A stretch of DNA of 13,233 nt from positions 1 through 13,233 of the forward strand of contig CAWJQC010000005.1 of NCBI GenBank assembly GCA_963844965.1. Direction: 5' to 3'. The notes under the pieces were generated by a model. It saw nothing but the letters and a program-made list of their open reading frames with translations. It was not told the DNA's origin and ran no database searches. How positions within the stretch are numbered: the first letter of the stretch is position 1; each line of letters begins with the position of its first letter. Source of the stretch: an uncultured bacterium (GTDB taxonomy: Bacteria; Patescibacteriota; Minisyncoccia; UBA6257; 2-01-FULL-56-20). Below are positions 2 to 4,507 of the stretch, piece after piece. The translations under genes were made by a program, and so were the position numbers.

Positions 2-1261
2 ACGAAAGAGGAATTGGAAAAATACTTGAAGCTTGTTGAAGAAGCGCAAAAACGCGACCACAGAAAACTGGGTAAACGTCTTGACTTGTTTACTTTTTCA
101 GATATGGTCGGCAGCGGTCTCCCGCTTTGGACACCGAGAGGAGCTCTGGTCCGGGGATTGTTGAATGAATATGTAGAATCGCTACAAGCAAAAGCCGGAT
201 ATACCCAAGTTTGGACGCCGCAGATCGCGAAAGCGGAACTTTTCAAAACATCCGGCCACTACGATAAATACCGGGAAAGCATGTTCCGCGTAAAATCAAA
301 TTACTCCGACGAGGAATTCTTTCTGAAACCCATGAATTGCCCCCAGCACACGCAGTTCTATGCAAGCCAGCCGCGGAGCTACCGCGACTTGCCGCTGCGT
401 TATACCGACTTCGCGATGCTCTACCGCGACGAAAAACCCGGCGAACTGAATGGCCTCGCGCGCGTCAGATCGTTCTCCCAGGATGACTGCCATATTTTCT
501 GCCGCGAAGACCAGGTTGACGAGGAAATTGACGTAGCGCTCGCCATGATAAAGGAAATTATAGGAACTTTCGGCCTCAAGTATCGCTATCGCCTTTCAAC
601 AAGCGACAAGGCGCATCGGGAAAAATATATAGGCGATCCGAAAACGTGGGACAAGCTGGAAAAGTGGGCGGAGGAAATTATGAAACGCAACGGCATTGAA
701 TACTTTGACGGCCCCGGCGAGGCGGCCTTCTACGGACCGAAAATGGACCTCATGGCAACGGATGCTCTTAGCAGGGAGTGGCAGCTCTCAACCGTGCAAA
801 TTGACTTTTTCCTGCCGGAGAGGTTCGGGTTATCGTACATTGACAAGGGAGGAAAAGAAAAACGGCCAGTTATGATCCACCGCGCGATATTGGGCTCGCC
901 CGAACGTTTCATCATGGTGCTTCTGGAGCACTTGGCCGGCGCGCTCCCGCTTTGGCTCGCGCCCACTCAGGCGGAGATCATAAACGTCGGTTCAGACCAA
1001 AGAAAATATGCGGCTAGTATCCACAAACAACTCTCCGACGCCGGCCTGCGCGCGAACCTGAGCGACGAAAATCTTACCGTCGGCAAACGCATCCGCGAAG
1101 CGGAACTTATGAAAATTCCTTACATCCTCGTCGTCGGCGAAAAAGAAGAAAAAAACGGGACGGTTAACGTCCGTCATTATCGCCGCGGGCAGGAGGGAGA
1201 AGTTAAAAGCGAAAAGCTGATTGAAAAGATCAAAAAAGAAATAGAGGATAAGGTCATATAA
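2..1261 (+). CDS. thrS: Threonyl-tRNA synthetase, 5'-truncated by the window edge (catalytic class II core plus anticodon-binding domain)
   Basis: The open frame runs from position 2 with no start codon in the window. The translation contains RDHRKLGKRLDLF, class-II motifs (FRVRSFSQDD.HIF, GPKMD) and a C-terminal anticodon-binding domain (ILVVGEKEE..GTVNVR). TAA stop at 1259-1261. The TTG at 14 in the ORF track is internal, not the true start. Confidence 0.9.
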   Translation, partial: TKEELEKYLKLVEEAQKRDHRKLGKRLDLFTFSDMVGSGLPLWTPRGALVRGLLNEYVESLQAKAGYTQVWTPQIAKAELFKTSGHYDKYRESMFRVKSNYSDEEFFLKPMNCPQHTQFYASQPRSYRDLPLRYTDFAMLYRDEKPGELNGLARVRSFSQDDCHIFCREDQVDEEIDVALAMIKEIIGTFGLKYRYRLSTSDKAHREKYIGDPKTWDKLEKWAEEIMKRNGIEYFDGPGEAAFYGPKMDLMATDALSREWQLSTVQIDFFLPERFGLSYIDKGGKEKRPVMIHRAILGSPERFIMVLLEHLAGALPLWLAPTQAEIINVGSDQRKYAASIHKQLSDAGLRANLSDENLTVGKRIREAELMKIPYILVVGEKEEKNGTVNVRHYRRGQEGEVKSEKLIEKIKKEIEDKVI

Positions 1262-1800: not shown

Positions 1801-1829
1801 ATTATATACTAACTAAAATAAAATGTCAA
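1801..1829 (-). promoter_or_regulatory. Perfect consensus sigma70 promoter TTGACA-N17-TATAAT on the minus strand, driving the 127-aa gene
   Basis: Minus-strand read: gggcTTGACAttttattttagttagtaTATAATgg. The -35 is at 1829..1824 and the -10 at 1806..1801, with a predicted TSS near 1793 and a 5'UTR of about 40 nt to the SD/ATG. Confidence 0.65.
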
Positions 1830-2014
1830 GCCCACATCCCCTGCCCAAAATAGTGGTCATAGTAGGCCCGACGGCAAGCGGCAAGAGTCGCTCCGACCAT
1901 TTTCTCGGAACCGCGGTCCTTCGGCTCCTGCGGCCAAAGTCCGCTGCTTCTCGGCGTCAAAACTTTTGCCCCGCAAAAGGCCAAACTTTTGACGCCTGCG
2001 AAAGCTTCCTCTAA
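1823..2014 (+). pseudogene. Relic of a MiaA N-terminus (P-loop PKIVVIVGPTASGKSR) without the rest of the enzyme; probably a decayed paralog fragment or leader ORF
   Basis: The first ~20 residues match the MiaA signature GPTASGKS and the true miaA N-terminus (PKIVAIIGPTASGKSK). Many codons differ at synonymous positions. Downstream of the P-loop the translation is unrelated to MiaA. It overlaps the -35 of the divergent promoter. Confidence 0.3.
1953..1996. promoter_or_regulatory. 10-bp-armed palindrome GGCGTCAAAA-N24-TTTTGACGCC with a nested 7-bp hairpin (CTTTTGC-ccc-GCAAAAG); the right arm carries the miaA -35
   Basis: Perfect inverted arms at 1953-1962 and 1987-1996, with an inner hairpin at 1963-1979. 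The direct repeat CAAA(A)CTTTTG occurs twice. Candidate operator or attenuator. Confidence 0.4.
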
Positions 2015-2017
2015 AAT
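1989..2017 (+). promoter_or_regulatory. miaA promoter TTGACG-N17-TAAAAT giving a nearly leaderless mRNA
   Basis: The -35 TTGACG is at 1989-1994 and the -10 TAAAAT at 2012-2017. The predicted TSS near 2024-2025 is only ~7 nt before the ATG at 2032. No SD is present. Confidence 0.5.
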
Positions 2018-2031
2018 AGTCCTCACTTGGA

Positions 2032-3027
2032 ATGATTAAAGCAATACGACCAAAGATCGTTGCAATTATAGGTCCAACTGCATCCGGCAAGAGCAAGCTA
2101 GCCATTAAGCTTGCACACAAATTCGGCGGTGAAATCGTCTCCGCCGATTCGCGCCAGATTTACCGCGGGATGGATATCGGGACTGCCAAGTTACCACTTG
2201 GCAAAATTCCCAATTTCCCCGCCTGCGCCGAGGCTTCGGCGGGCAGGCAATTTCCAATTTCCAAAATTCACCTTATTGACATCAAAAATCCCGACGAAAA
2301 TTATACCGCCGCCGATTACAAAAAGGATGCAATCGCCGCGATACGAAAAATTTTACGCAAGGGCAAACTCCCAATACTCGTAGGCGGCACGGGACTTTAC
2401 GTTAAAGCGGTCACGGATAATTTGGACATTCCCGCGGTCGTGGCCGACGAAAAACTCCGCCGTCGGTTGGAGTCGGAAGCGAAGAAACGCGGCTTGGACT
2501 TCTTGTTCAAAAAACTGGTCAAGCTTGATCCAGAAGCAGCTTATATCGTTGACCCCAAAAATCCGCGGCGCGTGATAAGAGCACTGGAGGTCACCATAAA
2601 AACCGGCAAGCCGTTTTCCGCACAACGAAGAAGGGGCGAGCCGCTTTTCGATTCGTTCATAATCGGCATTAAAACGCCGGGAGGTATGCTCAGTAAAAAA
2701 ATCAACGCGCGTGTGGACGAAATGATCAAAAACGATCTCGTGGGTGAAGCAGAAAATTTGCTGGAAAGATACGGACCAAGTCACAAAGCATTTGATTCCA
2801 TCGGCTACCGCGAGGTTATCCACTATCTGAACGGCGAGCTCGTGCTTGATGAGGCCGTGGAACTAATAAAGAAGAACACCAAAAACTACGCCAAGCGGCA
2901 AATGACGTGGTTCAGAAAAGACAAAAATATCCATTGGGTCGGCGGTGAAAAGGCGGCGTTCGAACTTACGAAAAAATTTCTGATTGGTCAGGGCAGCTGT
3001 AGCTTTTCGCGGAATAGGGTAAAATAA
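2032..3027 (+). CDS. miaA: tRNA dimethylallyltransferase (isopentenyl-tRNA transferase)
   Basis: P-loop IVAIIGPTASGKS, then ADSRQIYRGMDIGTAKLP, HLIDI and LVGGTGLYVKA. TAA stop at 3025-3027. It carries an extra ~13-residue insert between GTAK and HLIDI. Confidence 0.9.
   Translation: MIKAIRPKIVAIIGPTASGKSKLAIKLAHKFGGEIVSADSRQIYRGMDIGTAKLPLGKIPNFPACAEASAGRQFPISKIHLIDIKNPDENYTAADYKKDAIAAIRKILRKGKLPILVGGTGLYVKAVTDNLDIPAVVADEKLRRRLESEAKKRGLDFLFKKLVKLDPEAAYIVDPKNPRRVIRALEVTIKTGKPFSAQRRRGEPLFDSFIIGIKTPGGMLSKKINARVDEMIKNDLVGEAENLLERYGPSHKAFDSIGYREVIHYLNGELVLDEAVELIKKNTKNYAKRQMTWFRKDKNIHWVGGEKAAFELTKKFLIGQGSCSFSRNRVK
2203..2269 (+). repeat. In-frame mini-insert inside miaA: a GC hairpin (2221-2248) flanked by AAAATTCC/CAATTTCC direct repeats
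   Basis: GCCTGC-GCCGA-ggct-TCGGC-gg-GCAGGC forms a stem-loop. CAATTTCC-type repeats lie on both sides. It encodes LPLGKIPNFPACAEASAGRQFPISKIH, which is absent from typical MiaA between GTAKP and HxLIDI. Confidence 0.4.
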
Positions 3028-3031
3028 ATAC

Positions 3032-4064
3032 ATGGCCTCTGGTCGTTTTGAAATCCAATTCTTCGCGGGACTCCTGCTTTTGTCCGCCGCGCTCATGATT
3101 TTTGTTTTTTATCCATGTCTGAACGCGCTTGTCATCGCCATCGCGCTCGCCGTCATTTTCCATCCCATCTATGCGAGACTGCTACGTCTCATGCCGAAAT
3201 GGGAATGGCTTGCCGCCCTGATTACGGTCATGCTAACCATCGCAGTTATTCTCGTTCCGCTCACGATTTTCGGATTCAAAATCTTCGCGGAAGCACAGGC
3301 TCTTTACACGAGCTTTGCCTCGGGCGACAAAGGACCGCTCCTGGAATTTCTCCACGGCAAACTCGCGGAACTTACGCCCGGACTCAATCTAGACCTGACT
3401 CAATACACCCAGCAAATTCTTTCCGCACTGCTTGGAAACCTGGGATTCGATCTTCTCCAGGATCGTCGGCGTCTTCGGTACTTTCCTGCTGGCGCTTTTC
3501 GCTCTGTATTATCTCCTGAAAGACGGCTTGAAACTGAGAAGGGCAATGGTAAAGATCAGCCCGCTTTCGCCTGAGAATTCAGCCGAAATCGTAAATCGCC
3601 TTCAGACGATGACCGGTTCCGTAATTACGGGAACCGTCGCCATGGCTGTCATACACGGAATTCTCGTCGGCCTTGGATTTCTCTTGTTTGGACTTACAAA
3701 CCCGGTACTCTGGGGATTGGTTGCCGTCGTAGCGGCATTTATACCGATAATTGGAACAGCGCTGGTCGTCATCCCCGGAATATTCTGGCTTGTGCTCACA
3801 CAAAATCTCGCCGGAGCGATCGGTCTCGCGCTTTGGGGAATCCTTATGCTCGGGCTCATAGACAACATCCTCAGGCCGCGTTTAATCGAGCGCCGCTCAA
3901 AAGTCCACCCTCTTCTCGTTCTTCTTTCCGTCATCGGCGGCCTCGCGCTTTTCGGCCCGACCGGATTCCTTCTTGGGCCTCTCGTCTTGAGCTTGTTCCT
4001 TGTGCTTCTTGAAATCTATCCGGCGCTCATACTGAAACGCGGCGACAAAACACGGTCCGTCTAG
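3032..4064 (+). CDS. AI-2E family transporter / PerM-like (UPF0118) permease, with an apparent +1 frameshift near 3446
   Basis: Two overlapping ORFs (3032..3574 frame 2; 3432..4064 frame 0) together give a typical ~340-aa multi-TM AI-2E protein. Frame 1 ends its homology at ..LLGNLG. Frame 2 continues SIFSRIVGVFGTFLLALFALYYLLKDG, the family-conserved segment. Skipping one nucleotide after gga (3443-3445) joins them. TAG stop at 4062-4064. Tightly coupled to miaA (4 nt). Confidence 0.75.
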
Positions 4065-4234: not shown

Positions 4235-4507
4235 ATGGCCAAACAAGTCATTAAGCGCGGGGGGAAACGCGAGCCATTCCGGGCCGAGAAGCTGAGGAAG
4301 TCTGTTCGCGCCGCCTGCAGGGACACCCACATGTCGCCGGTCTGCATAAAAAAGGTAGTAACAAAAGTTGCCGGCCCGGTTCTGCGGTTTGCCGCGAAGC
4401 GGAAGGTGGTCAGGGTAGCGGTGCTCCGGAAAAAAGTTCTCGCCGGACTACGCAAGACGGAACCGGCAGCGGCAAAGGCCTGGCTGCGTTACGAGAGACG
4501 GCACTAA
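4235..4507 (+). CDS. Stand-alone ATP-cone domain protein (90 aa)
   Basis: VIKRGGKREPFRAEKLRKSVRAAC ... AKAWLRYERRH matches the ATP-cone consensus VIKRDGR.EPFD..KI ... Y..YRE.R, the NrdR/RNR N-terminal regulatory domain. No catalytic domain is attached and no SD is present. Confidence 0.75.
   Translation: MAKQVIKRGGKREPFRAEKLRKSVRAACRDTHMSPVCIKKVVTKVAGPVLRFAAKRKVVRVAVLRKKVLAGLRKTEPAAAKAWLRYERRH

Follow-up and report, generated by a model that had tools for sequence, protein, structure and literature searches.

The miaA locus

The region examined lies upstream of miaA, the gene for tRNA dimethylallyltransferase, in a Candidate Phyla Radiation (CPR; Patescibacteria) bacterium, where the first 22 codons of a second, apparently ancestral miaA (hereafter the relic) precede the intact gene. 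The stretch analysed (the window) is a whole metagenomic contig of 13,233 bp. It carries a gene for an aminoacyl-tRNA synthetase resembling threonyl-tRNA synthetase (ThrRS) on the plus strand and a small gene on the minus strand, followed by the region of interest, by miaA and an AI-2E family transporter gene (both on the plus strand), and then by genes for an ATP-cone protein, an M29 peptidase, a serine hydrolase, GatB, a cupin and guanylate kinase. The region of interest comprises the relic and an orphan spacer, in which lie an imperfect palindrome and the presumed current promoter of miaA (Table 1).

The intact gene has the features that define the MiaA family, a full-length IPPT domain and an N-terminal P-loop (GPTASGKS, residues 14–21). 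Its start reads MIKAIRPKIVAIIGPTASGKSKLAIKLA, and the N-terminus of the protein is MIKAIRPKIVAIIGPTASGKSKLAIKLAHKFGG, beginning MIKAIRPKIVAIIGPTASGKSK. MiaA homologues number 2333 at E ≤ 1e-60, and the best of them are 55–65% identical (the top ones 62–65%) and come from metagenome-assembled genomes of Wolfe-, Azam- and Liptonbacteria-like CPR organisms. The exact MiaA of the window has been seen on one contig only; the next homologue is 65% identical. Among 120 homologues, the body of the protein is closest to a clade consisting of P0003, P0013, P0004 and P0005.

An N-terminal fragment of MiaA upstream of the intact gene

The relic forms the head of a mechanically called open reading frame (ORF) of 63 amino acids, which starts MSSPHPLPKIVVIVGPTASGKSRSDHF and translates as MSSPHPLPKIVVIVGPTASGKSRSDHFLG up to its stop codon. 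An earlier reading of this DNA (the original prediction) had noticed a MiaA P-loop at the beginning of this ORF, and the match extends to a genuine MiaA N-terminus. All sequence features that it described were confirmed at its coordinates. When the relic peptide was ranked against the 120 MiaA homologues, its 22 residues aligned with real N-termini from the initiator methionine onward, with P0005 and P0059 closest (18 of 22 residues each) and P0004 matching at 16 of 22. The spacing of 14 residues to the P-loop glycine is the same in the relic as in real MiaA N-termini. In tblastx, the relic matches the miaA of locus L084 at 82% over 22 amino acids, from the ATG on, and 35 of 48 nt are identical to the miaA of locus L081. 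Within the window, the P-loop DNA forms a repeat (1844–1887 versus 2050–2093) that is 70% identical. As judged from these alignments, the P-loop match cannot be due to chance.

The homology to MiaA ends abruptly after codon 22 of the relic (~1887–1888). The tail of the ORF scores −3.3 bits against a profile of MiaA residues 22–56, with other frames no better, and the ORF as a whole has no Pfam match at E ≤ 0.01. Because only its first 22 residues correspond to MiaA, the ORF is a gene fragment and not a family member. The relic had been described as decayed, a description that does not hold: its 22 codons are pristine, and the junction with the unrelated tail is sharp. A trace of MiaA homology past the P-loop ('SAASR' resembling 'SADSR', at about the right distance) was considered and rejected as chance, given the profile score and unconvincing Smith–Waterman p-values. 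An intron, bypass or frameshift joining the relic to the miaA body was likewise rejected, as the downstream gene has a complete N-terminus and Rfam reports no intron.

Over the 16 codons that can be aligned, 17 of 48 nt differ between the two P-loop copies, with 3, 3 and 11 differences at the first, second and third codon positions. Thirteen of the 16 residues are nevertheless identical, and the other three are conservative replacements. When 17 substitutions were placed at random, the mean number of identical residues was 6.1 and the maximum 12, so that none of 200,000 trials reached 13. The original prediction had seen many of the differences as synonymous and had excluded a recent repeat, and these counts agree on both points. 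Divergence that falls mostly on third positions and spares the residues indicates that both copies evolved inside working miaA genes and were juxtaposed later; nearly all of the divergence arose while each copy sat in a functional gene. The longest exact word common to both copies is 8 nt (GGCAAGAG, at the end of both), which is not diagnostic of recombination because it covers the conserved GKS codons.

Position of the relic in related loci

The contigs of the closest MiaA homologues were compared with the window; the analysis as a whole drew on 87 miaA loci. Synteny is shared on both sides of the region: ThrRS (plus), the small gene (minus), miaA (plus), AI-2E (plus) and the ATP-cone gene, on to GatB, with orthologous flanking proteins. 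The distance between the small gene and miaA is 61–137 nt in relatives versus ~280 nt in the window, and the excess corresponds to the relic (66 nt) and the unrelated sequence after it (~144 nt). The match to the genuine miaA starts of the nearest relatives takes in both the relic and the DNA preceding it, with ATGTCAAG in common: the relic reads ctaaaataaaATGTCAAGCCC, the miaA start of L081 (whose MiaA, P0004, is 65% identical to that of the window) reads TATTATataaaatATGTCAAGTGCC (aligned form tattatataaaatATGTCAAGTGCC), and that of L084 (P0005) reads TATAATaaaataaATGTCAAGTACG (aligned form tataataaaataaATGTCAAGTACG). P0004 and P0005, with their relic-like N-termini, belong to the clade to which the body of the window's MiaA, too, is closest. 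This alignment, together with a peptide closest to the same clade, argues that the relic represents the ancestral miaA start of this lineage at its ancestral position.

A comparison of the locus in relatives had been suggested in the original prediction, and it places the relic where the relatives' real miaA begins, with the same upstream context. The two origins then offered, an old partial duplication and a displaced ancestral 5' end, fare differently: position and the common ATGTCAAG speak for a displaced 5' end, and the synonymous-only pattern of divergence makes an old duplication unlikely.

Table 1. Features of the miaA region and its flanks, with positions in the window
Feature	Position	Strand	Basis and remarks
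ThrRS-like aminoacyl-tRNA synthetase gene	14–1261	+	415-aa ORF
Gene for small membrane-anchored protein, 127 aa	1368–1751	−	ORF list and translation; ATG 1751–1749, Shine–Dalgarno sequence GGAGGTG; divergent neighbour of miaA
Predicted sigma-70 consensus promoter of the small gene, TTGACA-17-TATAAT	1801–1829 (1829→1801)	−	Promoter scan, 12/12
Relic, intact first 22 codons of a presumed ancestral miaA (MSSPHPLPKIVVIVGPTASGKS)	1823–1888	+	Translation, tblastx, alignment with miaA 5' ends of relatives
Mechanical 63-aa ORF (relic head plus 41-codon unrelated tail)	1823–2014	+	TAA stop 2012–2014 falls within the −10 motif and precedes the miaA ATG by 17 nt
Orphan spacer, ~143–144 nt	1889–2031		Carries the palindrome and the current miaA promoter motif
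Imperfect palindrome, 44 bp	1953–1996		18-nt arms 1953–1970 and 1979–1996, 16/18 paired (89%), 8-nt loop
Promoter-like site TTGACG-17-TAAAAT, presumed current miaA promoter	1989–2017	+	10/12; ends 14 nt before ATG 2032
Intact miaA, tRNA dimethylallyltransferase, 331 aa	2032–3027	+	PF01715 (IPPT), E = 1.6e-75, profile positions 1–243 of 243; own P-loop copy 2050–2093
AI-2E family transporter gene	3032–4064	+	Downstream of miaA, order as in L081; Pfam matches split over two ORFs; 1-nt frameshift near 3446

The relic and the intact gene could also have been brought together by the assembly, as a chimera or a mis-joined segment, and not be adjacent in any real genome. The region is known from a single 13.2-kb metagenomic contig, seen once, whose AI-2E gene contains a 1-nt frameshift, and P-loop DNA is conserved enough that exact words of 19–22 nt are common to different CPR lineages. 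The two copies here, however, have no exact word longer than 8 nt in common, so no k-mer links them; had the P-loops guided a mis-join, the sequence after it would be miaA and not an unrelated stretch of 144 nt; on both flanks the gene order follows that of the same relatives; and base composition is similar on both sides. Given the lack of a longer common word and the collinear flanks, an artefact is highly unlikely.

The spacer between the two copies

The spacer that separates the relic from the intact gene is without recognizable kin. By blastn and tblastx, it resembles neither the 87 miaA loci nor any other part of the window; there is no Pfam match in any plausible frame and, in a concatenated search, no match for any of its six frames among 5.8 billion proteins. 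Rfam 15 gives no match in 1750–2100 at E ≤ 1, and neither a tRNA nor a tmRNA turned up. Viral contigs, scanned twice for exact words, gave no exact match. Smith–Waterman comparisons with miaA bodies, the miaA 3' end and the intergenic regions of relatives gave no convincing match: seven of eight had p > 0.1, and the eighth, with L081, had an uncorrected p of 0.02.

These results bear on a second history, an ancient tandem duplication of miaA within the lineage in which both copies long remained functional and the upstream one was later mostly deleted, the spacer being its fused 3' remnant and old intergenic DNA. Such a history also predicts divergence under purifying selection and a sharp junction, and it needs no foreign DNA; that the body of the present protein has its nearest homologues in the very clade (P0003, P0013, P0004 and P0005) whose N-termini resemble the relic would fit it as well. 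The spacer, however, resembles neither the miaA 3' end nor the relatives' intergenic regions, and neither a tandem miaA nor a second P-loop was found in 80 related loci or in 7 extra contigs. Two miaA genes are also unlikely to be kept for long in a reduced CPR genome. Duplication followed by deletion is a possible course of events, less parsimonious than the replacement of miaA discussed below, and on the whole we regard it as unlikely.

Predicted overlapping promoters and leaderless starts

A perfect sigma-70 consensus promoter is predicted for the small gene on the minus strand (Table 1). Its −35 element is the reverse complement of TGTCAA in codons 1–3 of the relic and overlaps the relic's start codon, a feature absent from the original prediction. 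The same overlap of TTGACA with the miaA start codon (ATGTCAA) occurs in L001, L004, L006, L060, L081 and L084. On the plus strand, a −10 hexamer that matches at 5–6 of 6 positions precedes the miaA ATG by exactly 7 nt in L004, L081, L084 and L086, none of which has a Shine–Dalgarno (SD) sequence there; at the relic, only 3 of 6 positions match. Taken together, these features suggest a conserved arrangement of overlapping back-to-back promoters with leaderless miaA in CPR relatives.

The arrangement resembles known overlapping divergent promoters that share a coding start, in that the neighbour's −35 is the reverse complement of miaA codons 1–3, here and in six relatives. It differs in that the overlapped 'gene' of the window would be a dead stub and the neighbour's promoter is now a perfect consensus, a comparison drawn from sequence. 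The old miaA start region would now serve the neighbour only, which may protect at least its first bases from deletion; the neighbour's −35 is plausibly a reason why the stub was kept.

In L086, the promoter-like site of the small gene (TTGACA-17-TAAAAT, minus strand, 4419–4448) sits in aagTTGTCAAGGGCG. This stretch is similar to the miaA start with ATGTCAAG seen in L081, L084 and the relic, but lies ~66 nt upstream of the actual miaA ATG of L086 (4508; ATGTCAGT). L086 may have undergone an independent, smaller displacement of the miaA start.

The presumed current promoter of miaA had been pointed out in the original prediction, and the promoter scan recovered it; the scan returned four sites in 2 kb versus 1.5 ± 1.2 in shuffled sequences. 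No purine-rich stretch that could act as an SD lies between its TAAAAT (ending at 2017) and the miaA ATG at 2032. From the standard spacing between a −10 element and the transcription start site, the latter is predicted near 2024–2025, with a leader of ~7 nt. A nearly leaderless miaA is plausible and would fit the leaderless habit of the clade. The absence of an SD is not special to miaA, because several other genes of the window (those for the M29 peptidase, GatB and the serine hydrolase) lack one too; gmk and the small gene have strong SDs. Many genes of this organism may initiate translation without an SD or without a leader.

Leaderless (TA-led) genes have been predicted from a TANNNT motif whose first T lies ~12 nt upstream of the start codon (PMC3160421). 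The miaA genes of L004, L081, L084 and L086, with the first T of the −10 at −13 and no SD, resemble TA-led genes. The miaA of the window likewise lacks an SD, but the first T of its TAAAAT stands at −20 and a gap of 14 nt follows the motif, so that it falls outside the TA-led definition (PMC3160421) and a leader of ~7 nt, not none, is predicted. Of the earlier claim that miaA is nearly leaderless and without an SD, the missing SD and, as a fair prediction, the short leader have held up. A search of the literature for leaderless translation in CPR bacteria found nothing specific.

The miaA gene of E. coli is transcribed from multiple promoters in the mutL–miaA–hfq operon, and its transcript is SD-led; to our knowledge, no palindrome of the kind described here accompanies it. 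The enzyme family is the same in the window, but the gene context is completely different, with neither hfq nor mutL present.

The palindrome

The perfect 10-nt outer arms of the palindrome (GGCGTCAAAA/TTTTGACGCC) and its inclusion of the −35 hexamer are as the original prediction had them. The 13.2-kb window has a single inverted repeat of this quality (at least 16 of 18 positions paired, loop of 3–12 nt), and of 300 dinucleotide shuffles only 1% contain one; as RNA, the palindrome has a folding energy of −27.1 kcal/mol (z = −3.6). The palindrome is real and non-random. Its right arm (1979–1996) contains the −35 TTGACG (1989–1994) of the miaA promoter, which gives the geometry of an operator-like dyad, and each arm has a CAAA(A)CTTTTG mini-palindrome, the two being 23 bp apart.

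Several structural readings were tried and set aside. The terminator scan did not return the palindrome, and its stem is followed by TGCGAAAGCTTCC, which does not qualify as the end of an intrinsic terminator; a terminator was rejected. With no more than 8 nt between its arms, the palindrome was also rejected as an invertible promoter switch. As for a miniature inverted-repeat transposable element (MITE), a repetitive extragenic palindrome or another repeated mobile element, the palindrome is single copy in the window, has no exact match in viral contigs and shares its interior with none of the listed metagenome matches.

The original prediction took the dyad over the −35 for a possible operator, to which a repressor would bind and so control miaA together with the downstream permease. 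A dimeric repressor would suit the non-random dyad, the −35 within its right arm and the paired mini-palindromes. Further copies of the dyad and its conservation in relatives had been named as signs of such control, and neither was found: the window contains no second copy, and none of the 87 miaA loci has a dyad upstream of miaA. A metagenome scan for GGCGTCAAAA-N18-30-TTTTGACGCC returned at least 120 loci, and all matches listed have unrelated interiors, among them terminator-like hairpins from gut metagenomes and a repeat family in assembly JAAUXT01. Hence nothing in the scan points to a regulon, and by themselves the outer arms are unspecific. A Pfam scan of the window's ORFs detected no regulator or helix-turn-helix domain in any ORF scanned, so a cognate regulator gene is missing from the window. 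We know of no dedicated repressor for miaA, a housekeeping gene. Operators of the LexA or TetR type are palindromes that overlap the −35 or −10 element and usually measure 14–24 bp. The window's dyad is like them in overlapping a −35 hexamer, but it is unusually large (44 bp, arms of 18 bp) and comes without conservation, a second site or a nearby regulator gene. None of the tests run supports an operator, and we consider one improbable. By default, the palindrome is regarded as passenger DNA of an imported promoter region.

The repeat family in JAAUXT01 consists of units of 45–47 nt, GGCGTCAAAA(A)TT..CAATGG/CCATTG..TTTTGACGCC, which have GACGTC motifs on either side and recur on dozens of contigs (L092, L103, L111, L115, L118, L120 and ~30 others). 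It is possibly a satellite or a MITE and is unrelated to the window.

The 63-aa ORF might act as an upstream ORF (uORF), translated from the old promoter and terminated at 2012–2014, with re-initiation at the SD-less miaA ATG and the hairpin modulating the coupling. The frame is indeed open from the relic to 17 nt before the ATG, miaA lacks an SD, and upstream of the relic ATG the plus strand has a weak match to a promoter (ATGCCA-17-TATACT, 9/12). By our estimate, though, a tail of 41 open codons has a chance expectation of ~14%, and this tail has no homologue among the 5.8 billion proteins; the relic no longer has the leaderless −10 geometry of the relatives (3/6), miaA is directly preceded by a better promoter, and many genes of the window that lack an SD have no uORF. 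We hold translation of such a uORF to be very unlikely. A broader proposal, that the stub, the spacer, the 63-codon uORF and the palindrome, acting either as a DNA operator or as an RNA hairpin, form a functional leader that controls synthesis of a tRNA-modification enzyme in a CPR bacterium, is distinctly doubtful. Under it, a leaderless miaA start overlapping the neighbour's −35 would create promoter competition, from which the lineage would have freed itself by way of a separate miaA promoter.

Proposed replacement of the resident miaA

The reading to which we incline, with modest confidence, is that the relic is the original miaA start, left behind when a diverged miaA 5' end or a whole diverged miaA replaced the resident one and brought ~144 nt of its own upstream DNA. 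In the ancestral state, miaA would have started at the position of the relic, with a −10 box 7 nt upstream that implies a leaderless mRNA, as in the closest relatives; its first codons (ATG TCA A..) would have doubled on the other strand as the −35 (TTGACA) of the divergent small membrane-protein gene. Recombination would then have placed the incoming 5' end or gene directly after codon 22, probably by a one-sided (homology-facilitated illegitimate) event with DNA of another CPR lineage as donor. The incoming upstream DNA would have supplied the new promoter, TTGACG-17-TAAAAT, ~14 nt before the new ATG, along with the 44-bp palindrome, most simply as a passenger. The old promoter region would have become a perfect consensus for the neighbour and lost its leaderless −10 geometry. 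The old stub, no longer a gene, may have been kept since the event is young relative to neutral decay and since its first bases form the neighbour's −35.

Homology-facilitated illegitimate recombination is an established route for the integration of foreign DNA, with one homologous and one illegitimate junction (PMC3240628), and a paper on gene displacement in Vibrio cites it as a mechanism (PMC5361080). The sharp non-homologous junction and the divergence under selection seen here fit this route. The locus resembles described remnants of homeologous or illegitimate replacement, such as those in type VI secretion system clusters of Vibrio cholerae, in that a resident sequence appears displaced by a diverged homologue, an old fragment stands beside the new copy, and one junction is sharp and non-homologous (PMC3240628; PMC5361080). 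It differs in that a housekeeping tRNA-modification gene of a CPR bacterium is concerned, that only a 5' stub of 22 codons is left, and that neither the donor nor the homologous junction was found.

Several points weigh against replacement. No donor was found among the 120 homologues: none of them is a clearly closer match to the current N-terminus (MIKAIRPKIVAIIGPTASGKSKLAIKLAHKFGG) than to the remainder of the protein, and segment-wise identity reveals no mosaic. As the spacer matches nothing, only the pattern of divergence points to a foreign origin. With every relative diverged by at least 35%, the right-hand (homologous) junction cannot be placed. The G+C content at third positions of the first 30 miaA codons is 0.37 versus 0.55 for the whole gene, but another such window reaches 0.40, so the difference is not significant. 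With a single contig of the organism, and a frameshift in the next gene, the assembly may be of limited quality. Finally, the neighbour's −35 accounts for only the first ~7 nt of the stub and not for its P-loop codons, whose intact state would be better explained by a recent event.

Other features of the locus

Within miaA itself, a hypervariable loop of the protein between GTAK and HLIDIKNP (2205–2262) is encoded by DNA with near-identical 14-nt direct repeats (AATTCCCAATTTCC/AATTTCCAATTTCC), 44 nt apart, and a G+C-rich, hairpin-like stretch (CCCGCCTGCGCCGAGGCTTCGGCGGGCAGG) sits between them. About half of the 120 homologues have a short version of the loop; an insert of the ISNFQF(L/I)ISK type is found in 11 of the 120, encoded by AATTTCC-like repeats. 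The loop looks like a tolerant site into which short repetitive DNA has been inserted recurrently.

The small gene has a weak orthologue at the same position in L086 (33% identity over 93 amino acids; E = 2e-6 and 9e-9 in two comparisons) and another, judged by eye, in L084. It matches no Pfam family.

The AI-2E gene consists of two ORFs (3032–3574 and 3432–4064), split by one extra base near 3446 (region 3432–3460). In tblastn with the intact AI-2E protein of L081, the frame switches between residues 138 and 139. The frameshift is either a fresh pseudogene mutation or an error of the assembly consensus. A −10-like TAAAAT lies 6 nt before the ATG of this gene, which has no SD (region 3011–3034).

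The ThrRS-like ORF of 415 amino acids aligns with residues 177–591 of the 591-aa enzyme of L081 and therefore lacks the N-terminal tRNA_SAD/editing part. Since it starts 14 nt from the contig end and is preceded by an in-frame stop, it may be truncated, frameshifted or a naturally short form like the 401-aa enzyme of L082.

Implications

Recombination and gene flow are hard to observe in the Candidate Phyla Radiation, and the relic would offer a clean, datable-in-principle example of homeologous replacement of a gene or its 5' end in such a genome. For annotation, it follows that the 63-aa ORF should not be called a gene, and the locus suggests more generally that an overlapping neighbour promoter can preserve a dead gene stub. 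As a by-product, miaA in this CPR clade is predicted to have a leaderless mRNA whose first codons double as the neighbour's −35. The finding is a real but small evolutionary scar, one more case of a type of recombination scar already known, and it would change how MiaA or CPR biology is understood only if the palindrome proved to be regulatory.

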